Counted from the first letter of the stretch, positions 1,004-17,794 are shown. The stretch: 64,000 nucleotides of DNA from Patescibacteria group bacterium (GCA_038064455.1 JBBTTB010000006.1:5147-69146); one strand, 5' to 3'. Program-made: numbers and translations. Notes: generated by a model from the sequence alone, not told the origin.

Positions 1004-3451
1004 TTGCATGTCTGCGTACGGACCGAATGCACCCGTGCGGAGGCACACAATCGTGTGTTTATCATGAATATGTATGGCATGCCCGATGCAGTTCTTACTG
1101 CGTCGACTCCGCGTGTTGAGCGCGGACAAGAAGAGGGAATATATCGCACCATTGCGAAGTGGGCGGTGCTCGTGTTCGCGTTTCTACTTCCGCTGTTTGT
1201 GCTCCCCGTAACGAGTGCGATGATAGAAGCGAATAAGTTTGTGTTTTTGATTGTTGTGGCGAGCGTTGCGCTTATCGCATGGTTCCTCGGCATCGTTGTC
1301 TCGGGGACATTGCGCGTGCGCGTATCACCAATACTTACCATCTTAGCGGCGTTTATTGGCGCGGGGATTCTTGCGACGGCACTCTCGGTATCGCCGGAAA
1401 AGAGTTTGTTTGGGAATGGCATTGTCTTTGCCGGTTCGCTCACGAGCATCATTGCGCTCTCGGCGATCGCATGTGTGGCGCTTCACGTATTTGACGATCG
1501 TGGTCGTGTGCTCGCAAAAACGCTTGGTGCTGGCACCCTGCTTGCCCTGGTGATTGGGTTACTGCAGTTGTTAGAGATTTATATCCTTGGCGTTGATGCG
1601 TTTGGTTCTCGTGCATTCAACACCGTCGGTTCCGTGAACGCGCTCGGCATGCTTGCCGCGTTCTCACTTCCGCTGTTTGCGAAGCTACGCCTGCCACTGC
1701 CGCGCCTTAAGAAGGCGAACGTGGCACTTGTGGGAGTGGTGGTGAGTTTAGCAATCTTGGTGATTTTGAACTGGTGGGTATTCTGGGTTGTTACGATTGC
1801 CGGCATGATCGGTCTTATTATCTGGGATAGCGTTGCTTCGCTACGTATGGGAGAGCGTAAATTCCGCATGGCACACTTTCTTCTGCCCATGACCGTTATC
1901 GTGCTTGGAGTGTTTCTTCTCATCGTACACTTCTCGGTTCCTACGGTGCGTAATGCGCTCCCTGTAGAAGTTGCACCATCGTTCGGCCTTTCATGGGATG
2001 TGATGATTAAGACATTTGGGAAGAATTTGATCTCTGGGTTTGGCCAGGAAAACTTCCTTCTCGCGTTTGACCGCTTTGGCGCACAGCGTCTTGCGCAGAC
2101 GACACTTGGGGATATTCGCTTCCTCTCTGGCACCTCTGAAGCTATGACGATGGTGGTAGAGCAGGGTGCGGTTGGTATCTTGGCGCTTGGCACTATGCTA
2201 TGGATGTTTGGTCTTGCGCTCGTGCGCATGGCGCGACGCGTGCAAAGTGATGAAGCGGTGCACGGCGCAGTCTTTAGTATGGCAGTCGCTATGTTGGTTG
2301 GCTTCTTTCTCTTCTCATTTGAAGGAACGCTGATGGGTGTGTTTTTTCTCCTGCTTGCGTTGGTGGCGCTTGCGGCTGCAGCGGATCACGAAGAGCTTAT
2401 TCACATTGAAGAGCGTCCGGCGTGGTCGCTTGCAGCTTCACTGGGCTTTATTACAGTGCTTATTAGTGTCCTGACTGGTGGTTACTTTGTTGCTTCGGCA
2501 TATACGGGTGATGTGCAGTTCGCAAAAGCGTTGCGTGTTACCGATAATGCTCAAGCAAGCGAAAGTATGGCTCGCGCGCTTGCATGGGCGCCTGATACTG
2601 ACCGCTATTTACGCGCTATTGCACAGCGTCAGGTTGCGATTATAGGCACGGAAATAAACGCCCCTGCGGGATCACAAGATGCCGAACGTCAAGCGCGCAT
2701 CCAAACCGCGGTCAATAATGCTATCGGCGCCGCGCGGCGTGCAACAGAAGCTGACTCTTCAGACTCATTGAACTGGTTTACCCTTGCTACAACCTACCAA
2801 CAATTGTTAGGCGTACTAGAAAATGCTGACGGTCTTGCCGAAGATGCCTATAAGAAAACGGCCGATCTCCGTCCGGGAGATCCAACCTTCAGTAATCAGC
2901 TGGGTACGATGTATTTAGCAAAAGCGGATCTTTCCCGCCAGCTTGCTCGCAATGCCGGTGCAAATGCTTCGCGTTTCAACGCGGAAGCAGAGGCTTCGCT
3001 GATCAAGGCAGAAGAACATTTCAAGAAAGCGATTGAAATGTCTTCGAACTTTGGGCAAGCGATCTATAATCTCGGCGCCGTCTACGATCGCCAAGGGAAG
3101 GTAAAAGATGCTATTCGTGAATTAGAGCGCATTGTTCCAGCAAACGCGAACAACGCGAATATGCTCTTTGAACTTGGCTTGCTCTACTATCGCGATGATC
3201 GCAAAACTGACGCGGTCGCAGCATTCGAACGTGCCGTGTTAATCTCTCCTGATTTCAGTAATGCGCGCTGGTATCTCGCCCTTATCTTAGAAGAGCAGAA
3301 GAAGCTCCCCGAAGCTATTGAGCAGGTACAGCGCATATTGTCTCTCGAGGCGAACAAAGATAACGAGACGATCCAAGAGAAACTCGTTCAGCTCGAACAG
3401 GGCCTCGCGACCATCGGCCCTGACGGTGCACTTGATGAAAAGCCATTGTAA
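1004..3451 (+). CDS. Polytopic membrane protein, O-antigen ligase/Wzy-like, with a C-terminal TPR-repeat domain.
   Basis: The N-terminal two thirds is very hydrophobic with many predicted TM helices. The C-terminal 250 aa has TPR-like repeats (AIYNLGAVYDRQGK.., LFELGLLYYRDD.., ARWYLALILEEQKK). Start is ambiguous: TTG at 1004 with a GAGGAG RBS, or ATG at 1064/1070. Confidence 0.55.
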   Translation: MHVCVRTECTRAEAHNRVFIMNMYGMPDAVLTASTPRVERGQEEGIYRTIAKWAVLVFAFLLPLFVLPVTSAMIEANKFVFLIVVASVALIAWFLGIVVSGTLRVRVSPILTILAAFIGAGILATALSVSPEKSLFGNGIVFAGSLTSIIALSAIACVALHVFDDRGRVLAKTLGAGTLLALVIGLLQLLEIYILGVDAFGSRAFNTVGSVNALGMLAAFSLPLFAKLRLPLPRLKKANVALVGVVVSLAILVILNWWVFWVVTIAGMIGLIIWDSVASLRMGERKFRMAHFLLPMTVIVLGVFLLIVHFSVPTVRNALPVEVAPSFGLSWDVMIKTFGKNLISGFGQENFLLAFDRFGAQRLAQTTLGDIRFLSGTSEAMTMVVEQGAVGILALGTMLWMFGLALVRMARRVQSDEAVHGAVFSMAVAMLVGFFLFSFEGTLMGVFFLLLALVALAAAADHEELIHIEERPAWSLAASLGFITVLISVLTGGYFVASAYTGDVQFAKALRVTDNAQASESMARALAWAPDTDRYLRAIAQRQVAIIGTEINAPAGSQDAERQARIQTAVNNAIGAARRATEADSSDSLNWFTLATTYQQLLGVLENADGLAEDAYKKTADLRPGDPTFSNQLGTMYLAKADLSRQLARNAGANASRFNAEAEASLIKAEEHFKKAIEMSSNFGQAIYNLGAVYDRQGKVKDAIRELERIVPANANNANMLFELGLLYYRDDRKTDAVAAFERAVLISPDFSNARWYLALILEEQKKLPEAIEQVQRILSLEANKDNETIQEKLVQLEQGLATIGPDGALDEKPL

Positions 3452-4425
3452 TGAACATCCCTCGCATTCAGATCTCACAAAAGGTTGCGCTTGCATGGAG
3501 TATCACGGGAGCCTTCATTCTCGCGCTCGCGTATGTGCTCGCAGTGCCTGTTGGTGGCGCGCCACGTGAGATTTCCATTGCGAAAGGGCTTGGTACGGAT
3601 GCAATCGCTCGCACTCTCAAGGGTGCGGGCGTTGTGCGCTCATCTCTGGTGTTCTCGTTGTTGGTGCGCGCGCTTGGTGAGGATGGAAATTTACGCGCAG
3701 GGCGCTATATCATACACCCGCGCGACGAGAGTGCGTGGGACATTGCACTTAAAATGGCGGCTGGGCGAGCAGAGCCAGAAGACATTCGCGTGCTTGTTTA
3801 TGAGGGCATGAATGTATGGGAAGTTGACGGCCAACTTGCGGCGGTTGGTCTTATCTCGCGTGGGGCATTTGCAAAAGAGTGGTATCAAGACGAGGGGACA
3901 TTTTTCCCTGACACGTATCGTTTTCTGCCCGGAACAAGTGTTACTGAAATGGGGCGAACTATGCAAGAAAACTTTCGTGCAAAGGCCGGGTTCCCACGAC
4001 AAGATACCCTCATCGTTGCTTCAATGCTTGAGAAAGAAGGAAAGACACAAGAAGAACTGGAACTTATCGCTGGAGTCATCCAAAATCGCATAAAGCGGGG
4101 AATGCCACTTCAGCTCGATGCATCAGTGATCTACGGTGCCTGTATGCGTTCCTGGAAGGCCCAGGGCATGCGTGGTACCTGTGATGTGACCGATGTGCCA
4201 TCGGGGAGGGAAGCGGTCATAGATTCACCATATAACACGTATACACGCAAAGGGTTGCCAGAAAGCCCTATTGCTAACCCGGGGGCGATGGCGATAAAAG
4301 CGGCTGAACACCCGAAGGCATCAAAGTTTTTATATTATCTGTCACCACGCGATGGTAGTAGAGTTATTTTTACCGAAACGTACGCAGAGCATGTACGTAA
4401 TCGCGCGAAGTATTTAGGGATTTAG
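3451..4425 (+). CDS. mltG: Endolytic murein transglycosylase MltG (YceG family).
   Basis: N-terminal TM anchor plus a YceG-like domain (RAGRYIIHP.., C-terminal SPIANPG motif region). ATG overlaps the upstream stop (TAATG). Confidence 0.75.
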   Translation: MNIPRIQISQKVALAWSITGAFILALAYVLAVPVGGAPREISIAKGLGTDAIARTLKGAGVVRSSLVFSLLVRALGEDGNLRAGRYIIHPRDESAWDIALKMAAGRAEPEDIRVLVYEGMNVWEVDGQLAAVGLISRGAFAKEWYQDEGTFFPDTYRFLPGTSVTEMGRTMQENFRAKAGFPRQDTLIVASMLEKEGKTQEELELIAGVIQNRIKRGMPLQLDASVIYGACMRSWKAQGMRGTCDVTDVPSGREAVIDSPYNTYTRKGLPESPIANPGAMAIKAAEHPKASKFLYYLSPRDGSRVIFTETYAEHVRNRAKYLGI

Positions 4426-4440
4426 GTTGGCGTGTATTCT

Positions 4441-4549
4441 GCAAAACCCTACCCAAAGACTCAGCACGCTGTCGCCGCCCTACTGGCGGCGCATCTAGTT
4501 CTCGCACCGTCGTGCTCCGAAATGCTTCGCGTATTGGGTAGGGTTTTGC
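4441..4549 (+). ncRNA. Candidate structured RNA or cis-regulatory leader upstream of rplJ. A 15-bp perfect inverted repeat encloses nested hairpins.
   Basis: gcaaaaccctaccca (4441-4455) pairs with tgggtagggttttgc (4535-4549). Internal hairpins are GCCGCC-ctact-GGCGGC and agcacg/cgtgct. It lies in a 480-bp ORF-free gap before rplJ. Confidence 0.35.
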
Positions 4550-4847
4550 CCATACGTTAGTGTGTCGCCTGTGCCCTCGGTTCTACCCTCTCGCAGCCCG
4601 AACAGTAAGAGTTGCTCAATAACGTAAGGTGAGGGCGAGTAGGAGCGCGAGCATTCGCAGGATGCTCGACGCGTGGTAGAGAGAGGGCATAGGCAACGTG
4701 AGAGGCGGGTATTGAGTGGTATACACTCAATACGGCAGCTTTTCTCGTAGATTCTTGCATTTTATGGGCTTTTTTGTATACTTGTCCGTAAGCCGTAGAC
4801 AGCGGGCGTCCATAAGACCCGCCGAGGAAATACTCTTCAAAAGAGTC

Positions 4848-6724: not shown

Positions 6725-8659
6725 TTACTGCACCTGCCAGACTTTTTGATCTTCAGTGAGGTAGAAGAGCGAGCCGTTTGGATGCACTGTCGCGGTGACC
6801 ACCTCGTGCTCTTCAGGGAAGGTGATCGTCTTAAAGAGCGAGCCACTCTTCTTATCTACGAGGTAGAGACGATTGAGCGTTGTATCAAGAATGTAGACAT
6901 ACGGGAGGTCTACGCCAGTAAAGAGTTGTGATGCAGGGGATACAGGAAGGCCAGTGCTTACTTCTCCCGTGCGCTCGCCCTTGTAATAGGTGAGGAGGGT
7001 GCCCGTTGTGGTGACTGCGTAGATGTTCCCATCAATGGCGATATCTACGACATCTGCAGGAAGTGAAGCACTACTCTTGAGCCATGCACTTGCGGTGCCT
7101 TTGCCCTGCGCTGCTCCTGAAACGCGCATAATGGTGCTATTTGCAACGCCGTAGAGATTGTCTCCAAATTGTTCAAGATGCGCGAGGGCGGTGGAAAGGG
7201 TGATAGGGGTGACGCTCTGGCCCTTCACCGATGCGGCGTTGGTACCAGCAATAACCGTGTGAAGGGAATCGCTTCCCGTAAGCGCGGTTGCCTGTGCGGG
7301 AACGGTAACCGAGTCAGCAATAGCGGAGGTGCTAATGGCGTTTAATGTGCCGACGGTTTCGGTGGTGCGATACACATACAAGCCGTTCTGTGCAGCGATG
7401 TAGCTGATCTTTGCTTCTTCTTTGCTGTTATCAAATGCGAGTTGCGGTTCAGCGAGTTTTGCCTGATCAAGAGCATCGAGCTCCGCAAAAAGTTCAGAGC
7501 GTATTTCTTGTGCTGCGGTTGATGCGCTGTCTCCAGAGATAAATGGGTTGAGCGCGGCAAGTGATGCGCCCAAGAGGGTTCGTGCTTCCGGAATCTCATT
7601 TTGGTTTACTTTAGTTTTAGCGATCTTCATTTGATCGCGGACATCGGAGATGACTGTTGCGAGGGCTTCTTCTTCTGCGGAGGGCGTCACGAGGGATCGC
7701 ACAAAGAGGGTGCCACCAACGAGTGCGGCGATCATGACGACGAGGCCAATAGCGCGCGAGCGTGGGTTGAGGTCAGTGAGGCCAAGACGGCGGAAGAATG
7801 CCATGACGGGGTTCTTTTTTCGCCCCAACGAGAATTCGGAAGGAATGATGCGAGGAATGGTTTCTTCGCTTCCGAGCGATGTTGGTTGCGCGATGGGGGG
7901 CGTGTCGTGTTGAGGCGCCTGCGCAAAGCGGACTTGCTGTTGTTGTGGCTCTGGTACAAATGACGGTGCCGGCGCGGTGATTTCTCGGATCTTCTGCACG
8001 GTGATGTAGAGTGCGGCGCAGGAGAACGTATCTTTCTGTTCGCGAATAGCGGCAAGCTTTGCGATGAAGGCGTCTTTGTCGAGTTTGTCGAAATCACTCT
8101 TCACAAAGCGCTCTCGTGTGGTGAGCGAGCGATTGGGGAAGAGCGCAAGGAGGCGATCGTGTTCCTGCACTTTGCCGGAGATGATATTTGAGAATTGGCT
8201 GCCAGTGGCATCGGCATCTTTTTCGAAATGCTCTACATTGTTAAGTACATCAACAATGCCGCCCGTGCGCGCGAGGAACAGTTTAAACTTTCCGAGTTTG
8301 GAAATGAGGAGCGAGCCGTCAGCGATGGTGAAGATGCCCATGTTAATCTTTGCACCATTGTTTTCAAACAATTCGGAAACAACTTCGTTTACTTTGCGAA
8401 GCGTGTTTGAGAATGCATCTTTAATAGCAATGCCAGGGCGCGCGTAGTATTCACGCTTTGCAAGCGCGGCAATGAGGTTGAGCGCGTAGGCGAGATCATC
8501 AGTGGGGTGGCTGATGTTGCCGACCACGAAGAGATTACCCAACATGCGGGTGCTGTCTTGCTCGTCGGAGCTGTATGAGAATGCGTCCGCGGGTCCTTCA
8601 GGGTTCGCGCCAGAGATAGAGATTTCGTGGGCAATCGGCTTTAAAGTGATTTTTTCCAT
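6725..8659 (-). CDS. Single-pass membrane protein with an N-terminal cytoplasmic PP2C/SpoIIE-like domain (possibly a degenerate phosphatase) and a large C-terminal extracytoplasmic domain.
   Basis: N-terminal region has the pattern ..GNLFVVGNISHPTDDLAYALNLIAA.. / ..GIFTIADGSLLISKLGKFKLFLARTGG.., reminiscent of SpoIIE-type PP2C motifs but with Asp positions replaced. TM segment LVVMIAALVGGTLFV. Beta-rich C-terminus. Confidence 0.45.
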   Translation of the reverse strand: MEKITLKPIAHEISISGANPEGPADAFSYSSDEQDSTRMLGNLFVVGNISHPTDDLAYALNLIAALAKREYYARPGIAIKDAFSNTLRKVNEVVSELFENNGAKINMGIFTIADGSLLISKLGKFKLFLARTGGIVDVLNNVEHFEKDADATGSQFSNIISGKVQEHDRLLALFPNRSLTTRERFVKSDFDKLDKDAFIAKLAAIREQKDTFSCAALYITVQKIREITAPAPSFVPEPQQQQVRFAQAPQHDTPPIAQPTSLGSEETIPRIIPSEFSLGRKKNPVMAFFRRLGLTDLNPRSRAIGLVVMIAALVGGTLFVRSLVTPSAEEEALATVISDVRDQMKIAKTKVNQNEIPEARTLLGASLAALNPFISGDSASTAAQEIRSELFAELDALDQAKLAEPQLAFDNSKEEAKISYIAAQNGLYVYRTTETVGTLNAISTSAIADSVTVPAQATALTGSDSLHTVIAGTNAASVKGQSVTPITLSTALAHLEQFGDNLYGVANSTIMRVSGAAQGKGTASAWLKSSASLPADVVDIAIDGNIYAVTTTGTLLTYYKGERTGEVSTGLPVSPASQLFTGVDLPYVYILDTTLNRLYLVDKKSGSLFKTITFPEEHEVVTATVHPNGSLFYLTEDQKVWQVQ

Positions 8660-8753
8660 GGGGTTTACTTTTCGAGTCCTCTACGCTAGACTGCGCGGGA
8701 TATTTTCAGGGCGCAGAACGTACTACCTGCATTCTACTGAAACGTCTGACCAT

Positions 8754-8954
8754 ATGTCAAAGAGTGTTCTGGATAACCTGTTTGGTTCGCGTGCGCGAGT
8801 CAAAATCTTAAAATTTATTTTTCGGACACATCCGGAACAGTTTACGTTTCGCGATGTTGTTCAACGCACGCAAGAGTCAGAAGATATTGTAAAAAAGGAG
8901 CTTGCCGTCCTTGAAAGTATGCACTTAGTGCGTCGCATAAGCAACGGTTCATAA
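8754..8954 (+). CDS. Small winged-helix DNA-binding protein, 66 aa.
   Basis: ..FTFRDVVQRTQESEDIVKKELAVLESMHLVRRISNG is a helix-turn-helix-wing pattern. It sits directly upstream of the next gene, which it may regulate. Confidence 0.4.
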   Translation: MSKSVLDNLFGSRARVKILKFIFRTHPEQFTFRDVVQRTQESEDIVKKELAVLESMHLVRRISNGS

Positions 8955-8956
8955 GT

Positions 8957-9448
8957 ATGCCTCCAAAGAAACGAAATCGCACTGGGAAGCGGAAAAAGAA
9001 AGCACGCACGCCAAAACGTGTGGTGCGTCCGCGCGTGGTGATGCCCGGCCCAACCTATGTGGTGAATAAAGAATTCGCGTTCTTTAACGAACTGCATTCA
9101 CTTATTTTAAAACCATCTCCTGCAGAGCGCGGCGAGTTGATGCGCCGCATTGCGTCACTTGGTCGCGTGAAGCTCGCGGTTATCTCCGGAGTCTTTTTAA
9201 ATACACCAGATCAAACAGCGCTCATTGATACGAACGCACCAACCGACTTGTTTTTAGTAGCAGATGATTATAGTAAACAAAAACTCTCTGCATTTTTGAA
9301 AGCCCTTGAATCAGAAGTAGGCAAGGAAATAAAGTTTGGTATCATGGATAGGGAAGAGTTTATGTATCGTTTTGGCATGTTCGATCGCTTCGTGCGCGTG
9401 CTCCTTGAGGGGCCCCACGAGAAGTTGATTAACAAGCTTGGCATTTAG
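8957..9448 (+). CDS. Hypothetical protein with a strongly basic N-terminus (KKRNRTGKRKKKARTPKR) and a possible minimal nucleotidyltransferase-like core.
   Basis: ORF. Basic tail plus ..LAVISGVFLN..DLFLVADD.. (weak similarity to the NTase fold). Its stop overlaps the tRNA 5' end by 1 nt. Confidence 0.4.
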   Translation: MPPKKRNRTGKRKKKARTPKRVVRPRVVMPGPTYVVNKEFAFFNELHSLILKPSPAERGELMRRIASLGRVKLAVISGVFLNTPDQTALIDTNAPTDLFLVADDYSKQKLSAFLKALESEVGKEIKFGIMDREEFMYRFGMFDRFVRVLLEGPHEKLINKLGI

Positions 9449-9521
9449 GGCGCATAGCTCAGCTGGTTAGAGCGTTGCATTCACATTGCAAAGGTCCCTG
9501 GTTCGAGTCCAGGTGCGCCCA
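9448..9521 (+). tRNA. tRNA-Val (anticodon CAC).
   Basis: Folded by hand. Acceptor GGGCGCA/TGCGCCC. D-arm GCTCAGCTGGTTAGAGC. Anticodon stem TTGCA/TGCAA with loop TTCACAT. T-arm CCTGG-TTCGAGT-CCAGG. Discriminator A. No encoded CCA. Confidence 0.8.
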
Positions 9522-9962
9522 CTAAATAGGGCACGCGACAGCCGCTTCCGGTTGTTGCGTGCCCTGATTGCTGCATACGCGCCTGGCTCGAACGCCGGAG
9601 CGATGTGTTGCCAGCTGGCAACACCGCGAGGCGGTGGTCAGTTTACCCGCCCGCCAGTTAGGTGGGCGGGCCCGAGCCCCGACGACTGGTCGGGGCGAGA
9701 GGCGAGACCGAGTCCAGGTGCGCCCACTAAATAGGGCACGCGACAGCCGCTTCCGGTTGTTGCGTGCCCTGATTGCTGCATACGCGCCTGGCTCGAACGC
9801 CGGAGCGATGTGTTGCCAGCTGGCAACACCGCGAGGCGGTGGTCAGTTTACCCGCCCGCCAGTTAGGTGGGCGGGCCCGAGCCCCGACGACTGGTCGGGG
9901 CGAGAGGCGAGACCGAGTCCAGGTGCGCCCACTAAATAGGGCACGCGACAGCCGCTTCCGGT
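9504..9962 (+). repeat. Tandem direct repeat with a 205-bp period, 2.2 copies. Each unit begins with the last 18 nt of tRNA-Val (cgagtccaggtgcgccca).
   Basis: Copy 1 at 9504-9708 (shares the tRNA 3' end), copy 2 at 9709-9913, copy 3 partial at 9914 to about 9962. Copies 1 and 2 are essentially identical. Units are rich in hairpins. Confidence 0.85.
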
Positions 9963-9984
9963 TGCTGCATGCTCCGATTATTGT

Positions 9985-10013
9985 TTGACGTGCGTGAAAT
10001 AACGGCGTATACC
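9985..10013 (+). promoter_or_regulatory. Sigma70-like promoter of island gene A: TTGACG-N17-TATACC.
   Basis: -35 at 9985-9990 and -10 at 10008-10013. The module is conserved upstream of paralog B. Confidence 0.5.
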
Positions 10014-10102
10014 TATGCTGTTCGTTGCGTTCTTTCTCAACACAACATCGGCGGGCTCTACGGAGTTGACCGGTGGCTTAAAGGCTGTGGCTTTTAAGAA
10101 AT

Positions 10103-10864
10103 GTGGTACGACGATACCGCATAGGTGTTACGATGCCTCTCAAGCAAGAGATGCTGGAAGCTGCTCCCAGGGCCGCCTCGTGGCTCGCGGAGCGATGCCT
10201 CAACACGCTGTCTCCGACAGACCGAAGGGCGGTTTTCGATGACGTGGTGCAAGAGGCGATGAACCGTAGCGATGGCGACTCCGCGTCGGCCCTCTTAGAG
10301 CTCGAGCTTCGTTACTTGGATTCTGGCGCGCTCGATCGGGTACCCACGCCAGAGACCGTGGAGGAGCAGTGTTGGGTGCGCTACCTTCTCATCGAGCATC
10401 GCTTCTTGCGCGTGGTGGAGGCTAGGTGCCTGCGTCCCAGCAGTATGGAGCCATTTGCCAACTACAAGCTGTTCGTCTGCAAAGAGGTGGCAGAGTGCTG
10501 GACGCCGACGCTTCATGGGCCCCGTGAGTTGCGGGCTTTCCGCCTTTTGGCGGCAATGGGGTGGTGTGACTCGCCAGAATATCTCGAAGCTTTTTGGGAG
10601 CGCGTTGGCGCATCTATGCCACCGTGGGCGCGCGCGATGTACGCGACTACGAGGGCGGAACAGAATAAGTTCATCGCGATCCTCCGTGAGCGCCTGGATC
10701 GGTTTCCGCGAACCGAGCCGCAGGATCCCGAGGCCGCTTTCTTGTACTGGCTTTCCTTGCCACGTGTACCTGCCGACTTGAGACGCTTGCTCGCCATGGC
10801 GTATGCGAGGATAGTCGGCCCCGACGCGATCATGCGCGGTATGATGCAGCAGCCGCGTAGCTAA
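10103..10864 (+). CDS. Hypothetical protein, island paralog A (GC-rich).
   Basis: 253-aa ORF, with an alternative start at 10133. No known motif. Homologous to the next gene (..RAFRLLAAMGW.. / ..FLYWLSLPRVPADLRRLLAMA..). Confidence 0.5.
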   Translation: MVRRYRIGVTMPLKQEMLEAAPRAASWLAERCLNTLSPTDRRAVFDDVVQEAMNRSDGDSASALLELELRYLDSGALDRVPTPETVEEQCWVRYLLIEHRFLRVVEARCLRPSSMEPFANYKLFVCKEVAECWTPTLHGPRELRAFRLLAAMGWCDSPEYLEAFWERVGASMPPWARAMYATTRAEQNKFIAILRERLDRFPRTEPQDPEAAFLYWLSLPRVPADLRRLLAMAYARIVGPDAIMRGMMQQPRS

Positions 10865-10875
10865 AGCGCCAAACC

Positions 10876-10910
10876 AGCGGCCCCGGACCTGTCCCGAGGC
10901 CGCTTTTTTA
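10876..10910 (+). terminator. Rho-independent terminator after paralog A.
   Basis: gcggcc..ggccgc stem followed by TTTTTT. Confidence 0.7.
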
Positions 10911-10935
10911 TGTGCCTTTTATTCAACATATCTGA

Positions 10936-10964
10936 TTGACGCAAGTAAAATAATGGCGTATATC
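10936..10964 (+). promoter_or_regulatory. Sigma70-like promoter of island gene B: TTGACG-N17-TATATC.
   Basis: -35 at 10936-10941 and -10 at 10959-10964. About 60 bp is similar to the module upstream of paralog A, including a conserved gttgcgt just downstream. Confidence 0.5.
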
Positions 10965-11052
10965 TATAGCTATTTGTTGCGTCCCTTAACAACTTTCGCT
11001 GCTGGGCCCTTAGGGGCTGATCGGCGACTCGGAAGCTACGGCCGACGAGCCT

Positions 11053-12261
11053 GTGCGACACGACGTTGTCGCGTGGAGCACCACTATGGCGCTCAAGATC
11101 GAATTCTGGACATCGGCGGAGGAAATTCTCCGAATGTTGCCGTCAGTATCCGCAGCCATGGCCATGAAGTGGCTTGCGGCGCCCTCGGAAGATCAGGAAT
11201 CCTTCTTGGACGAAATCGTGATGACGGCCGCTCGGCGCTATGACGACGAGCAGACGTTTGCGCTCACCAACCTCATGTGTGCAGTGATCACTGAGCGGGA
11301 AGTTGCTGTCGCCAGAGACGGGACGGGCAACCGCTTCGAGAAGGAAAACGCTGCAAAGGCCGTCGCCGTTGAAAAGGCGCTGAAGTATCTCGACGATCTC
11401 TTCTGGCGCCTACCAGACTCTCGTGTTCAGCTCGACTATGAAACGCGCAAACCATACAACACGGCAGCGCTCACGGGAACGAAAGCGTTCATCTTCAAGC
11501 GTCTTCTGACGCAGTGGAAGTTGGCGGTGCCATCCGAGGTAAGCATCCGTGCGTTTCGTCGCGCGATCGCCATGGGGTGGCCACTCCCCGCGGAGACGAA
11601 GACCCTGCCTGGCGAAAGCGACATCGAACTGAAGGTTCGTGGGCGTTGGGTATCGGCAGATGAGCGCAAGCAGTATCTGACCACCCTACGCGAATGTCTG
11701 GGGGGTTTGACGTCGGATGACCCGGATAGCCTGTTCTCCCACTGGTTCTCACTCCAGGCGGTTCCCTCTGACATCCGGGACCTGCTTGCCATCGCGCGGA
11801 CGAGGCTGGGTGGCCACCACCTGGCATCGCGTGACGTGGTGCGTGCGGGGATGCTCAACGGCTTGCCGCAGTCGGGGGTAGAGGTGGTCGCCGCCTTGGC
11901 TGTTCGTATGCGCCTGGCCGTGGAGGGGTTGACGCGTGTCAAGGAGCTCATCGCCAAGAGTATCCCAGCACCCCACATCCACCAGAGCTACTTCCAACGA
12001 GAGAGAATCATCGCAGAAGGAGTCGAGCGTGCGGTTAAGTACGCTTTCAATTTCTCTCCCGAAACCGTGACGCTGCAAATGACTGTCATGGTGCCGGACG
12101 AGATGTACGGTTCCAACATGTACTACCCCACCGTCGACGCCATCGAGAAGGTACAGTGTAAGGGCAATCTCCTCGACATCGCAATCATGCTGCGCTTTTA
12201 CGATCCGAACGCTCGCGATCGTATCGTGAAGGAGTGCAGCATCGAGGCGGCCCCGCGCTAG
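11053..12261 (+). CDS. Hypothetical protein, island paralog B (GC-rich).
   Basis: 402-aa ORF, with an alternative start at 11086. The central and C-terminal region is homologous to paralog A (..RAFRRAIAMGW.., ..FSHWFSLQAVPSDIRDLLAIA..). Weak hairpin terminator at about 12262-12305. Confidence 0.5.
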   Translation: MRHDVVAWSTTMALKIEFWTSAEEILRMLPSVSAAMAMKWLAAPSEDQESFLDEIVMTAARRYDDEQTFALTNLMCAVITEREVAVARDGTGNRFEKENAAKAVAVEKALKYLDDLFWRLPDSRVQLDYETRKPYNTAALTGTKAFIFKRLLTQWKLAVPSEVSIRAFRRAIAMGWPLPAETKTLPGESDIELKVRGRWVSADERKQYLTTLRECLGGLTSDDPDSLFSHWFSLQAVPSDIRDLLAIARTRLGGHHLASRDVVRAGMLNGLPQSGVEVVAALAVRMRLAVEGLTRVKELIAKSIPAPHIHQSYFQRERIIAEGVERAVKYAFNFSPETVTLQMTVMVPDEMYGSNMYYPTVDAIEKVQCKGNLLDIAIMLRFYDPNARDRIVKECSIEAAPR

Positions 12262-12446
12262 CGGGCAACCCCGACGGTCTCGAGAAGCAATTCTCGGGGC
12301 CGTTTTCTTATCAATTTACTCTTTTCGATGCATGGTGCGAGTGAAATGCTCGCGCAAAGTCCCCAGCTCGGCTGGTGGGGCTCCTGCACACCCCGCGACC
12401 ATTCGTTGTTCACGAAGATCGTGGGGTGTTTTACTTATGCACATTT

Positions 12447-12480
12447 CCGCTGTTGCGCGCATGCTCGGTGGGGTATACTG
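12447..12480 (+). promoter_or_regulatory. Candidate promoter of the mraZ operon: TTGCGC ... TATACT.
   Basis: ttgcgcgcatgctcggtggggtatactgac about 45 nt upstream of mraZ. Confidence 0.35.
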
Positions 12481-12525
12481 ACTAGGTAGTGGTTGTAAGT
12501 GGGAAGAAGTGTTACATCGCAAACC

Positions 12526-12960
12526 ATGCTTATTGGCGAATACCAACACACGATTGATGCCAAGAAGCGTCTTGCGATTCCTTCAAAATTTCGCCGTGAG
12601 CTTGGTGAGCGCGCCGTTGTGACTCGAGGAGTAGACGCATGTTTGTTTGTCTTTCCTCTCCAGCACTGGGAAGTGCTCGCAGAGCGCATTGCAAATCTGC
12701 CCGTTACACAGGGGGATAGTCGGTCGTTTGCACGATTGATGCTCTCCGGCGCTACAGAAGTCGAATTTGATTCCCTCGGTCGCGTACTCATTCCCGATCA
12801 TCTCAAGAGTTACGCAGGATTGAACCGTTCAGTCGTTGTTGCGGGACTCTATAAGCGATTGGAAATCTGGGATGCCGCCGCATGGGAGCGTACCAAGCAA
12901 GAGCTTGAGAAGAATTCCGACCGTATTGCAGAGAAGCTTGGTGAATTAGGAGGCATTTAA
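12526..12960 (+). CDS. mraZ: Transcriptional regulator MraZ.
   Basis: MLIGEYQHTIDAKKRLAIPSKFRREL.. duplicated MraZ/SpoVT-AbrB fold. First gene of the division and cell-wall cluster. The ORF track start at 12499 is probably too long. Confidence 0.85.
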   Translation: MLIGEYQHTIDAKKRLAIPSKFRRELGERAVVTRGVDACLFVFPLQHWEVLAERIANLPVTQGDSRSFARLMLSGATEVEFDSLGRVLIPDHLKSYAGLNRSVVVAGLYKRLEIWDAAAWERTKQELEKNSDRIAEKLGELGGI

Positions 12961-12963
12961 CGT

Positions 12964-13857
12964 ATGACGGAGCACGTACATACGCCAGTTCTTTTAGAAG
13001 AAGTTATCACGCACCTCAACCTGAATCCTGAAAAACGATTCATTGATGCGACCCTTGATGGCGCAGGTCACACCGCAGCGGTGTTGGAGCGCTACCCGGG
13101 TATTCGCATTTTGGGCATTGAGCTTGATCCGGTGCAGGTTGCACAGTTGCCGGAGCGCCGCCCAGAAGTTGCACGGCAGATTATCGTGGTAAACGATAGC
13201 TACGCGAATCTCGCGCAGATCGTTGCTGACCACATCTTTCCACCCGATGCGATCTTGATGGATCTCGGACTCTCTTCGTGGCATTACGAAGTGAGTGGCA
13301 GGGGATTCTCATTTATGCGTGATGAACCGCTTGATATGCGCTTTCAGCCCGAGACAAATCCTACGACGGCTGCGGTTATTTTAAATACCGCTTCCGTTGA
13401 TGAGCTAGAGCGCATACTGGCGACGTATGGCCAGGAACAGTTTGCAGACGCAATCGCATACGCAGTGGTTCGTGCCAGGTCGGCGACGCCCATCCGGACG
13501 ACGTTTGACCTGGTGCGGGTCATTGAAAGCACAGTTCCCGCGTGGTACCGGCATCGCAAGTTGCACTGTGCCACAAAAACGTTCCAAGCACTTCGTGTCG
13601 CAATCAATGATGAGTTGTCATCAGTTGCGAATGGTATTCGAGCTGCAATCGATGTTTTGAATCCCAGTGGACGATTAGCGGTGATCTCCTTCCAAGGCAT
13701 GGAGGACCGCATAGTCAGAGAGGCATTCAAGGCAGCGGTTGCAGGAGGAAGAGGTTCGTGGGTGACGCGAGCGACCCTTCGACCCACATGGGAAGAAGCA
13801 AAGCGAAACCCTCGAGCGCGAAGTGCAAAGCTGAAGTTATTTCAGAAGGCAGAGTAG
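12964..13857 (+). CDS. rsmH: 16S rRNA (cytosine1402-N4)-methyltransferase RsmH (MraW).
   Basis: HTPVLLEEV..., SAM-binding motifs, DLGLSSWHYE-like region. Position is immediately after mraZ. Confidence 0.9.
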   Translation: MTEHVHTPVLLEEVITHLNLNPEKRFIDATLDGAGHTAAVLERYPGIRILGIELDPVQVAQLPERRPEVARQIIVVNDSYANLAQIVADHIFPPDAILMDLGLSSWHYEVSGRGFSFMRDEPLDMRFQPETNPTTAAVILNTASVDELERILATYGQEQFADAIAYAVVRARSATPIRTTFDLVRVIESTVPAWYRHRKLHCATKTFQALRVAINDELSSVANGIRAAIDVLNPSGRLAVISFQGMEDRIVREAFKAAVAGGRGSWVTRATLRPTWEEAKRNPRARSAKLKLFQKAE

Positions 13858-14229: not shown

Positions 14230-15954
14230 ATGAAGCGAATTGTACACGAACATACTCGGGTTTTTCTGTTGACGGCGGCATTTATTGCCGCCTTCGTGCT
14301 TGCGGGGTATCGCCTTATTGTGCTTGCGGGGGTGCAGCACGAAGAGTATACAAAGCAGGCGCGCGCACAATCGGAGCGTGCCACAACGCTCGTAGCTCGA
14401 GGGAATATCTTCTTCCAAAACGCTGGTGATATTCGACCAATCGCTGCGGTAAACCGTCGTTTTCCCTTCATCGTGGTTCATACGAGTAATACTGAACCAG
14501 AATTACGTGAGGGAATCGCTGACGCGCTTGCAACGGTGACCGGCGCATCAAAAGACTCCCTCATAACACTTCTAGCGCGTGAGAATAAAGAGCGCACGTT
14601 GCCGTACCGTCTTACAGAAGAGCAAGCGCGTGTCGTAGCCGATTTAGAGCTACCCGGGATTGGTATCGCGTATGCGCTAGATCGCGAGTATCCTAGTGGC
14701 ACCCTTGCGGCTGATGTGCTCGGATTTGTTGGCTACAATGAACAGGGGCGTGCGGGGCAATACGGCATCGAGTCGCGATTTGAAGATGCGCTTTCAGGCT
14801 CGCTTTCACGAAGAAGCTTTTTTGCTGTGACGAATCCAATCAGTATTATTCGCTCACTCATTGGCGGCGAGAGCGCTCGTGCGGAAGAGTCAGATCAGCC
14901 GCGCGATATTATTCTTACACTTGATCACACCATCCAAGCATACGTTGAGAATGCGCTTGATTCAGTGATCACAAAATGGAAAGCAGTGGGGGGTTCCGCA
15001 ATTGTACAGGATCCTCGCACTGGGCGTATTCTCGCGATGGTAGATCGCCCCACATTCAATCCAAACGAGTACCGTACGAGTAAGACAGAGGCATTTTTGA
15101 ATAGTTCTGTGCAGAATATTTTTGAACCGGGCTCCACGTTTAAGCCATTTACGATGGCGGCGGGTCTTGATACCAATGCGCTCACACCACAGACCACCTA
15201 CTATGATACGGGGTCAGTTGAGGTTGCTGATCGTGTTATTAAAAATTCAACACAACGTCCTGCGGGAACGCGAACAATGACACAAGTACTCGAGCTTTCG
15301 TTGAACACGGGGACAGTGTTTGCTGCGAAATTGATAGGCGCGGAAAAATTTCGTGAGTACATGGTGAACCTTGGGTTTGGTCAGCCAACGGGGATCGATC
15401 TCCCAGGTGAAGTGAGCGGCGATATCTCAAATCTTTACTCGGGGCGGGAAATTAACACCATGACGGCTTCATTCGGACAGGGTATCGCAGTGACTCCTAT
15501 TCAACTGGTGAATGCATTAAGCGCCATTGCAAATGGTGGCAGGCTTATGCGCCCACTTATTGTAGATCGCATTATTACGGGAACCCGAGAAGAAATCATA
15601 GAGCCCGAGGTGGTTACCATTCCATTTTCTGAACGTACGGCGAGTCGTCTCCAAACGATGCTTACGAGCGTTATCGACAATGGCTATGATGCTGGTGGGC
15701 GTATCGCGGGCTATGATATCGCTGGAAAGACGGGCACAGCACAGATTTCAGGGCCAGACGGCAAGTATCTCGACGGTATTTTTATTCACACCTTTATCGG
15801 ATTTGCGCCATCGTATGATGCGCGCTATACCGTGCTATTAAAACTGGACCGACCACAAGGTGTGACGTATGCGTCTAATAGTCTTGTGCCAACATTTAAA
15901 GATATCATGCAATTTTTGTTGACCTATGGTACCGTACCACCATCACGACGATAA
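14230..15954 (+). CDS. ftsI: Penicillin-binding protein (FtsI/PBP2-type transpeptidase).
   Basis: N-terminal TM segment. Active-site STFK (..EPGSTFKPF..), SxN region and a KTG motif (GKTGTAQ). Confidence 0.85.
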   Translation: MKRIVHEHTRVFLLTAAFIAAFVLAGYRLIVLAGVQHEEYTKQARAQSERATTLVARGNIFFQNAGDIRPIAAVNRRFPFIVVHTSNTEPELREGIADALATVTGASKDSLITLLARENKERTLPYRLTEEQARVVADLELPGIGIAYALDREYPSGTLAADVLGFVGYNEQGRAGQYGIESRFEDALSGSLSRRSFFAVTNPISIIRSLIGGESARAEESDQPRDIILTLDHTIQAYVENALDSVITKWKAVGGSAIVQDPRTGRILAMVDRPTFNPNEYRTSKTEAFLNSSVQNIFEPGSTFKPFTMAAGLDTNALTPQTTYYDTGSVEVADRVIKNSTQRPAGTRTMTQVLELSLNTGTVFAAKLIGAEKFREYMVNLGFGQPTGIDLPGEVSGDISNLYSGREINTMTASFGQGIAVTPIQLVNALSAIANGGRLMRPLIVDRIITGTREEIIEPEVVTIPFSERTASRLQTMLTSVIDNGYDAGGRIAGYDIAGKTGTAQISGPDGKYLDGIFIHTFIGFAPSYDARYTVLLKLDRPQGVTYASNSLVPTFKDIMQFLLTYGTVPPSRR

Positions 15955-17420: not shown

Positions 17421-17483
17421 TTAGACCCTGTTGGATTTGAACAAGTTATTAATTTATGTTAAAAGTCTTTTTAAGGAGGAGAA

Positions 17484-17687
17484 ATGCAACTACGCTATTG
17501 GCTACAAGTCCAAGGGTGTCCGAAGCATGAAGTGACCAGAGAGCGGTTCATCCAAGCAGAAAGAAACGCTGGGTTTTACCCAAAGAGCGGGAGCGGGGAC
17601 GTGTTGGCAACGGGCGGGTTCTCCAGCGGGGACATCTTGGGATCGATCACCTACGAAGAAAGTGCGGCGGAGAAGAAGGGATCCTAA
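17484..17687 (+). CDS. Small hypothetical protein (67 aa) with a strong RBS.
   Basis: AAGGAGG 6 nt upstream of ATG. Promoter-like TTGAAC-N17-TAAAAG upstream. Terminator-like gaccg..cggtc+T6 at about 17720-17742. Confidence 0.35.
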   Translation: MQLRYWLQVQGCPKHEVTRERFIQAERNAGFYPKSGSGDVLATGGFSSGDILGSITYEESAAEKKGS

Positions 17688-17794
17688 CCATCCCCCACAA
17701 GCGTCCCTAGGGACTCGCTGACCGAGAACGGTCTTTTTTCATAGAGGGGGGTCTTTTCTTGACCTTTTAGGTGTTTCTGCTATCATGGCACCTT

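Follow-up and report, generated by a model that had tools for sequence, protein, structure and literature searches.

Does the 3' end of a tRNA gene that recurs a short way downstream mark the boundary of an integrated island, or does it belong to something else? The question is raised by a 64,000-nt stretch of DNA (hereafter the window) from a metagenome-assembled genome (MAG) of Patescibacteria (Paceibacterota, Yanofskybacteria-like) from Hainich groundwater, in which a tRNA-Val(CAC) gene is followed by two further copies of its own tail and then by a GC-rich island of two genes, A and B. The duplication of a tRNA 3' end, starting in the T-loop, is a classical signature of integration, and Williams is said to have described in 2002 the T-loop as a sublocation of integration within tRNA genes; an earlier note on this window had read the tail copies and the island as one integrated element or its remnant. 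We conclude that the array of tail copies (9504-9979) and the island (9980-12317) are two unrelated features lying side by side. The array is built from a structured 205-bp unit that belongs to a family found behind many tRNA genes, and we see about an even chance that this family is a small non-autonomous mobile element targeting such genes. The loci, contigs and assemblies compared are given L-numbers, and proteins P-numbers.

A structured 205-bp unit behind tRNA-Val

The tRNA-Val(CAC) gene directly adjoins the stop codon of a conserved gene of 163 amino acids (aa) at 8957-9448, and the gene order around it is conserved at 57 related loci: a 644-aa gene, a small open reading frame (ORF), the 163-aa gene, tRNA-Val(CAC), a variable stretch and then mraZ-rsmH-ftsL-PBP-murE. 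The last 18 nt of the tRNA, CGAGTCCAGGTGCGCCCA, have three exact occurrences in the window (9504, 9709 and 9914), at the 205-bp spacing that the earlier note had seen; no further match appears in the window when three mismatches are allowed, against a chance expectation of 0.08. The repeated segment extends beyond this tail to the whole 205 bp, which adds to the earlier description. Tandem Repeats Finder reports a single array at 9504-9979 (period 205, 2.3 copies, 98% matches), with a GC content of 67%, in which copies 1 and 2 are 100% identical across 205 nt and copy 3 is partial (66 nt, 94%). In L004, a sister assembly of this organism, a single full unit is present, against two in the window, and what had been taken for a tandem att duplication is instead a change in the copy number of a structured unit. 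Copy 3 is probably the ancestral trailer and terminator of tRNA-Val, because L005, a relative with an empty site, has a comparable hairpin followed by TTGTTTGAC.

Anatomy and predicted fold of the unit

The 205-nt unit has a predicted minimum free energy of -130 kcal/mol, with z = -9.5 relative to dinucleotide shuffles. Its parts are a tail copy, a hairpin (P0), a short 5' arm and a conserved core (Table 1). In the predicted fold the 5' arm pairs with the next tail copy to form helix P1, in which U60 is bulged and the terminal CCCA is left single-stranded. The core is composed of P2, which has the form GCCGGAGCGAUGU-hairpin-ACCGCGAGGCGG, and of P3 and P4, which form a three-way junction; that of unit 1 also contains a lineage-specific GC hairpin (9647-9669), and the 3' end of the core reads ...GGCGAGAC. 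In other members of the family, a hairpin with a nearly invariant loop and closing sequence, CAACUGCUUG (CUGC tetraloop), usually lies just 5' of the arm (for example in L111, L091, L102, L153, L177 and L014, 4589-4610), and by the family's spacers P0 of the window is the counterpart of this CUGC/CAACUGCUUG-loop hairpin. A similar hairpin with a CUUC loop is kept as the tRNA-Val trailer in L005.

The sequence of P1 covaries with that of the tRNA throughout the family. The 5' arm is complementary to tRNA positions 56-59 and 61-69, with nucleotide 60 bulged, and since it tracks the variable nucleotide 59 it is a complement of the tail and not a copy of the 5' side of the T-loop. We considered separately whether the arm is a direct copy of the 5' strand of the T-stem together with the T-loop, as in a minihelix with an insertion, and rejected this: in the window, L140 and L087 the arm has the complement of nucleotide 59, not T54.

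Within the unit, compensatory changes are present in 11 pairs from three lineages alone. Across 79 metagenome copies, 90.1% of the cells are paired, compared with 66% in shuffles and 34-53% in slid-partner controls; double changes occur in 45 of 48 pairs, and the covariation score is 0.357 versus 0.10. In the internal helices G.U pairs outnumber A.C pairs by 56 to 11, an excess which argues that the tRNA-sense strand is the one that is folded. The copies thus show the generic hallmark of a structured non-coding RNA, namely a secondary structure conserved on one strand with compensatory changes.

A family linked to tRNA genes

A pattern scan of metagenomes with a degenerate P2 pattern yielded at least 120 stretches, and a covariance model built from three lineages gave 117 matches among the listed stretches; the counts for the family that follow are among the matches listed. 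The earlier note had proposed searching for the unit in metagenome and phage databases, and the two halves of this search diverged: more than 100 metagenome contigs match, whereas a pattern scan of viral_contigs and a BLAST search of the unit against phages and plasmids each returned 0 matches. The named genomes that carry the family are all Patescibacteria MAGs.

The association with tRNA genes is close and strand-specific. A tRNA on the same strand lies at most 300 nt upstream in 76 of the 93 assessable distinct copies (median gap 42 nt), and in the other 17 no antisense tRNA takes its place in that upstream interval. The linked tRNAs represent at least 34 isoacceptors and 19 amino acids. 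The tail copy is exact (18/18) in 33 of the 76 tRNA-linked copies and matches at 16/18 or more in 41, and in every exact copy inspected the identity begins at C56 of the T-loop (..GGTT/CGA.. in the tRNA and ..GARGC/CGA.. in the element, the slash marking the junction). The right end of the direct repeat is variable, at 19-81 nt, and the long repeats span the terminator hairpin of the tRNA. The motif RCGAAG directly follows 10 of 78 linked tRNAs and 0 of 100 other tRNAs.

Searches with Rfam 15 (4227 models, including tmRNA, group I and II introns, ribozymes and motifs associated with IS605 and reverse transcriptases) detected tRNA only, both across positions 8500-13500 of the window (E <= 1) and at the elements of six other member loci (E <= 0.1). 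ARAGORN and Rfam did not call the unit itself as a tRNA or tRNA-like RNA, and we found no description of the family in the literature. The unit therefore appears to represent a large family of structured elements behind many tRNA genes that is apparently uncatalogued and undescribed. A tmRNA-like or T-box-like role was also considered and rejected, the unit being without any defining feature of either.

Patchy distribution and possible signs of movement

The closest relative, L005/L012 (flanking protein 97.7% identical over the aligned part), has an empty site: there is no repeat, structured unit, gene A or gene B, and between tRNA-Val and mraZ lie a hairpin, a promoter and three small ORFs. 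In the complete 615-kb genome L008 (CP129474.1; flanking protein 92%), the structured part occurs once behind tRNA-Val and ends in a tail copy, with a repeat of 26 nt. The unit is likewise present at tRNA-Val in L011, L015 and L014, where the terminal copy matches the local tRNA despite differing T-stem, T-loop and acceptor sequences, and where the 5' strand that pairs with the tail copy differs in step with the local tRNA-Val. The covariance model detects the element at 7 of the roughly 60 tRNA-Val loci, and most carriers have a nearest neighbour without it; the other two tRNAs in the window have no unit.

Several observations speak for movement, or at the least for active recombination. The similarity of the cores is independent of tRNA type (0.46 at the same tRNA and 0.50 at different tRNAs), and the most similar cores (0.85-0.93) are located at different tRNAs. 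Two unrelated contigs hold tandem pairs, with periods of 177 bp (L140) and 186 bp (L136), and in L126 two near-identical cores (97.7%) have different arms, which is the best example within one contig. At L066 (322-600) and L022 (4406-4478) a flanking protein is 98.8% identical, yet very different tRNA-Val(CAC) genes occupy the same locus; the element in L066 terminates in nucleotides 49-73 of the L022-type tRNA-Val, with a different tRNA-Val upstream. From these sequences it looks as though an incoming tRNA and element displaced the resident tRNA gene and left the resident tail behind.

The fixed junction at the 3' end of the element and its variable far end would fit either att-type recombination, through the element's own tail copy, or a target-primed process. 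The flanks are too diverged, in the window versus L005 and in L008 versus L005, to separate att-type from target-duplication insertion. Of the features of retroelements, the fixed 55/56 junction and the variable right end are seen; there is no A-tail, and the sole nearby reverse transcriptase is an RVT_1 gene about 6 kb away in L011.

Several side observations concern enzymes and rearrangements near the element. Large serine recombinase genes adjoin some copies or tRNA 3' ends (L148, 3122-5018; L132, 1187-2107; L048, 4492-5356; L129, 11361-12949). The gene in L148 is a lone recombinase in an otherwise housekeeping context, about 400 nt from a copy of the element that has a tRNA-Ser-like tail and no upstream tRNA; the pair could be an autonomous relative or a coincidence. 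In L011 (1447-5146 and 8535-8746), tRNA-Val and the element run opposite to the conserved genes that flank them, and the RVT_1 reverse-transcriptase gene lies together with a gene for a 616-aa serine recombinase 3-7 kb upstream.

The GC-rich island

The block downstream of the array was described by the earlier note as GC-rich, as holding two genes of unknown function and as ending before mraZ, and all of this agrees with our results. Its GC content is 58.3%, compared with 50.9% in the rest of the window, where other 2.3-kb segments have a standard deviation of 1.5% and a maximum of 54.4%. Codon usage, which the note had also proposed to examine, points the same way: GC at third codon positions is 0.72 and 0.73 in genes A and B and 0.42-0.57 in all 33 other long ORFs.

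The two genes are paralogs (BLASTP 1e-12), and gene A was recovered as P0123 in the profile search of the family. Neither has a match in Pfam, and in PHROGs there was one weak match, to a PHROG of unknown function; a tblastn search of gene B against phages gave no match, and gene A, gene B and the 50-member family had no meaningful match among PDB sequences and Pfam. A word-indexed search of 5.8 billion proteins with gene B returned only itself and one 32%-identical relative, and a profile search of 1.84 billion cluster representatives gave 83 members without annotation, all from metagenomes and MAGs. The AlphaFold model of gene B, made with 50 aligned members, is confident and mostly helical (pLDDT 91, pTM 0.82), with no informative relative, and in particular no recombinase relative, among solved structures. 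Although a minor point beside the unit, the island thus adds a confidently modelled protein family that has no solved structural relative and has a conserved leader. A 20-mer, AAATAAYGGCGTATAYCTAT, occurs only at 9997 and 10948, in the promoter and leader regions of genes A and B. The leaders of distant family members (P0002, P0124 and P0129) have in common a CTACGG..GCTAG..TTACGA motif (L001, 9850-10030; L189, 1040-1225; L191, 1235-1395), and by its sequence the shared leader is a candidate cis-regulatory RNA of this orphan protein family.

In other lineages the homologs lie between dnaB and cysS as ordinary chromosomal genes, without a tRNA in the vicinity; in the genome of the window dnaB and cysS are adjacent. 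No homolog of gene A or gene B is present at the tRNA-Val locus in the 57 syntenic Yanofskybacteria-type loci, and the comparison with related genomes that the earlier note had suggested did reveal sites lacking the island, in L005/L012 and L008. The island took the place of about 0.6 kb of small ancestral ORFs between the tRNA terminator and mraZ. It truncated one of these, which is intact in L005 (9127-9262) and L008 and whose last ~15 codons survive at 12318-12365 of the window. The outlying composition, the absence in relatives and the resumption of homology at about 12318 together indicate a lineage-specific replacement of ancestral sequence by foreign DNA. We conclude that the island is a separate, horizontally acquired cassette of two paralogous orphan genes, each with its own promoter, leader and terminator, and that it was probably imported by recombination at a variable spot and not by a site-specific integrase.

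Table 1. Coordinates of the features at the tRNA-Val locus of the window.
Feature	Position	Strand	Remarks
tRNA-Val(CAC)	9448..9522	+	Intact; ARAGORN; Rfam tRNA, 71.5 bits
Direct-repeat copy 1	9504..9569	+	Tail from T-loop C56 to discriminator (9504-9521) and 48-nt trailer including P0 hairpin
P0 hairpin, unit 1	9527..9566	+	Predicted fold: 18-bp stem, CUUC loop, no U-tract after it
5' arm, unit 1	9578..9590	+	CGCGCCUGGCUCG; predicted to pair with tail copy 9709-9722 (helix P1)
Conserved core, unit 1	9591..9708	+	P2, P3, P4; covariance model R1, 173 bits; covariation
Second full 205-bp unit	9709..9913	+	100% identical to 9504-9708: tail copy 2, P0, 5' arm, core; missing in sister assembly L004
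Direct-repeat copy 3	9914..9979	+	Exact tail copy and degenerate hairpin (94%), then U-rich UUAUUGUUU
Promoter TTGACG-17-TATACC and ~115-nt leader of gene A	9985..10132	+	Repeated upstream of gene B
Gene A, 243 aa	10133..10864	+	Orphan family; shorter paralog of gene B; terminator 10877-10909
Promoter TTGACG-17-TATATC and leader of gene B	10936..11085	+	
Gene B, 391 aa	11086..12261	+	Small orphan family; confident, mostly helical model
Intrinsic terminator of gene B	12273..12310	+	Marks right end of island
Ancestral small membrane-protein ORF, 3' remnant	12318..12365	+	Homology to empty-site relatives resumes
mraZ	12526-12960		Pfam MraZ, 1e-37; ~200 nt past end of island

Discussion

How could a structured unit come to stand behind so many tRNA genes with an exact copy of each local tail? 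In the reading that we favour, and to which we give roughly even weight, the unit is a selfish element that would enter the tRNA gene at the 55/56 boundary of the T-loop. The tail would thereby be duplicated on either side of the element, which would keep the tRNA intact, and the unit would be transcribed together with the tRNA, its tRNA-sense strand folding as RNA. The direct repeats on its two sides would permit both precise loss, which would account for the empty site in the closest relative, and tandem amplification, which would account for the two units in the window as against one in L004.

Several points weigh against such a mobile element. Transcription of the unit is something that we infer, since only DNA was analysed; the metagenome contigs that carry the family stand without taxonomic assignment; and the 79-sequence alignment was fitted to the structure of the model, so that its pairing counts are somewhat inflated. 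Several multi-copy contigs hold divergent copies (often 32-66%), and the near-identical cores of L126 were downgraded as evidence of recent transposition, the copies being neighbours for which gene conversion is possible. No transposase, integrase or reverse transcriptase is associated with the family, large serine recombinases lie near few copies only, and when 865 neighbouring ORFs were clustered all against all, no recurrent enzyme emerged. The patchiness could reflect repeated loss through the direct repeats rather than gain, and assembly might in principle account for the extra unit of the window. In addition, the 5' arm fits each local tRNA, including nucleotide 59, which is not explained by simple cut-and-paste, att recombination or another standard mechanism.

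A bolder version of the mobile-element reading, which we regard as rather unlikely, is that the family forms a new class, either of protein-less mobile elements or of RNA-guided targeting modules, that is specific for tRNA genes: a conserved RNA scaffold would insert at 55/56 of almost any tRNA gene and take both of its arms anew from the target. Each insertion would yield a 3' arm that is the duplicated tRNA tail and a 5' arm that is its complement, with nucleotide 60 skipped; candidate target-templated routes would be synthesis of a snap-back or target-primed kind, or the action of a host enzyme that recombines a folded single strand. If true, this would be a target-templated mechanism of a kind not described for any transposon, integrase or retroelement.

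The same evidence can be read without any mobility. It is possible, though we lean against it, that the unit does not move but is passed on vertically as a functional non-coding RNA module within tRNA operons. It could possibly serve as a processing or termination module, as a decoy or regulator in the maturation of tRNA 3' ends, by competition involving its 5' arm and the two tail copies, or as the source of a stable small RNA freed by RNase P or RNase Z acting on the acceptor/T-arm-like helix; selection or local gene conversion would then keep the tail copy equal to the tRNA, and the patchiness would result from direct-repeat loss. The strong covariation and the strand-specific G.U pairs are indeed RNA-like, the orientation is tRNA-sense in all tRNA-linked copies, and P1 looks like an acceptor stem stacked on a T-stem, with a 3' overhang of 4 nt. 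There is also no sigma-70-like promoter between the tRNA and the unit, and a U-tract is missing after the first hairpin whereas U-rich sequence does come after the last copy, which together suggest co-transcription with the tRNA. The failure to find a mobility enzyme and the divergence among copies on one contig are as a purely vertical module would have them. However, the identity with the tRNA continues past the mature 3' end into the non-functional trailer, for up to 48-60 nt, which indicates an event at the level of DNA. The cores do not follow tRNA type, the tail in L066 belongs to a different tRNA-Val from the one upstream, and carriage by a minority of tRNA-Val loci and by neither of the other two tRNAs of the window makes an essential function unlikely. 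An error of assembly, whether the two full units are artefactual or the single unit of L004 is a collapsed repeat, seems improbable to us. It would explain why copies 1 and 2 are identical and why the two assemblies differ by exactly one unit, and short-read assemblers are poor on such repeats; against it, both assemblies have at least one unit between two tail copies, and L140 and L136 hold independent tandem pairs. Since such an artefact would touch copy number only, it is compatible with each of the other three readings.

The remaining alternative is the classical one, in which 9448-12310 is one integrated element or remnant, the repeats are the attL and attR scars of a tyrosine recombinase, and the integrase has been lost. 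Much about the locus invites it: the duplicated tail starts in the T-loop, as in the classical signature; the block is compositionally foreign and absent in relatives; integrative elements do form tandem arrays; and large serine recombinase genes adjoin tRNA 3' ends in the related contigs L048 and L129. Of the earlier proposal of an integrated element at the tRNA, the foreign-looking island that relatives lack has stood, but its att scars have not. No tail copy is found at the right edge of the island (12250-12400) even with three mismatches, all three copies lying to its left, so that tail repeats on both sides are true of the 205-bp unit only. The same repeats and unit occur without the island in L008, L011, L015 and L014, and dozens of other tRNAs are followed by the unit; the repeats are thus part of the unit and do not bound the island. 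Neither island gene is recombinase-like, their homologs elsewhere are the ordinary chromosomal genes of the dnaB-cysS interval, and tblastn with three large serine recombinases found none in the window, although no search of the whole window for tyrosine recombinases was made. As a model for the island the classical reading is largely refuted, and we give it little probability.

The unit shares traits with several known systems and matches none. Integrative elements and islands in tRNA genes, including tycheposon-type hotspots with integrase-less satellites, likewise have a repeat that starts in the T-loop, an intact tRNA, tandem arrays, presence or absence in close relatives and variable foreign DNA beside the tRNA. 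The present unit differs in being only 134-205 bp long and non-coding, with a core backed by covariation and a 5' arm complementary to the tail copy; it uses at least 34 tRNAs, no integrase was found, and the kb-sized island is not bounded by the repeats. Miniature inverted-repeat transposable elements (MITEs), REP/BIME, the PATEs of IS200/IS605, Correia/NEMIS, RUP and BOX elements are also short, multi-copy, non-coding, patchy and co-transcribed, with stable hairpins. These repeats, however, have terminal repeats encoded by the element, short fixed target duplications and no tRNA targeting, whereas the terminal inverted repeat of the unit is sequence of the target tRNA and its duplication is at least 18 bp. 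A MITE-type DNA transposon was rejected as an explanation, as the arms vary with the local tRNA, the duplication measures 18-81 bp and there is no recurrent neighbouring transposase.

A parallel in architecture may be drawn with the integrative mobile elements that exploit XerCD (IMEX; CTX-phi and its satellites), which integrate as folded single strands and in which two inverse copies of the target about 100 nt apart fold into a bulged duplex that mimics the chromosomal site, and in which integration regenerates the target and gives tandem arrays, some of these elements being without a recombinase of their own. Here the target is a tRNA tail and not dif, the folded arm covers positions 56-69 only, and the G.U excess suits an RNA at least equally well. 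The omega RNAs of TnpB/IscB and the bridge RNA of IS110 resemble the unit in having a structured scaffold followed directly by 16-20 nt of flanking-target sequence; in our case no TnpB, IscB or IS110 gene lies nearby, the 5' arm ties up what would be the guide, and the IS605-associated Rfam models do not match. The tRNA-like domain of tmRNA, YrlA/Y RNA, and the tRNA-derived short interspersed nuclear elements and tRNA-targeting retroelements of eukaryotes share an acceptor/T-arm helix, a single-stranded 3' tail and an association with tRNA genes, whereas the unit is without a full 7-bp acceptor stem or a T-loop, and no reverse transcriptase, poly-A or internal promoter is seen. Within the same phylum, Patescibacteria have group I introns in the anticodon loop of tRNA genes, which interrupt the gene at 35/36 and match Rfam intron models (PMC13011429). 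They too are structured RNAs physically tied to tRNA genes, and were rejected as an explanation: here the tRNA is uninterrupted, the element lies downstream of it and no intron model matches.

Should the family be as it appears, it would be a widespread element of more than 100 copies and 19 amino-acid specificities, absent from Rfam and not found in the literature, in a little-studied phylum with small genomes. A conserved RNA scaffold is combined in it with a 5' arm that complements the tail and with an exact tail copy from C56 onwards, a design that no known transposon, integrative element or tRNA-like RNA has. The family raises the questions of what recognises the 55/56 boundary of the T-loop, how the arms come to match the tRNA and what effect a transcript would have on tRNA maturation. 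For annotation, the consequence is that duplicated tRNA tails in such genomes are not automatically the att scars of an integrase, nor the limits of an island, and that the element may mislead predictors of tRNAs and of islands.

Other variation at the locus

Apart from the unit and the island, the locus varies in its tRNA genes. L020 has a tandem pair of tRNA-Val(CAC) genes at the tRNA-Val locus (4385-4573), and L016 has two tRNA-Val genes there, CAC and GAC (2792-3893). Downstream of murE in L005, a 68-aa GIY-YIG ORF (14307-14513) adjoins a tRNA-Glu gene, and at the matching position of the window (~17480-17690) there is an unannotated 67-aa ORF, which makes this another small variable spot beside a tRNA.

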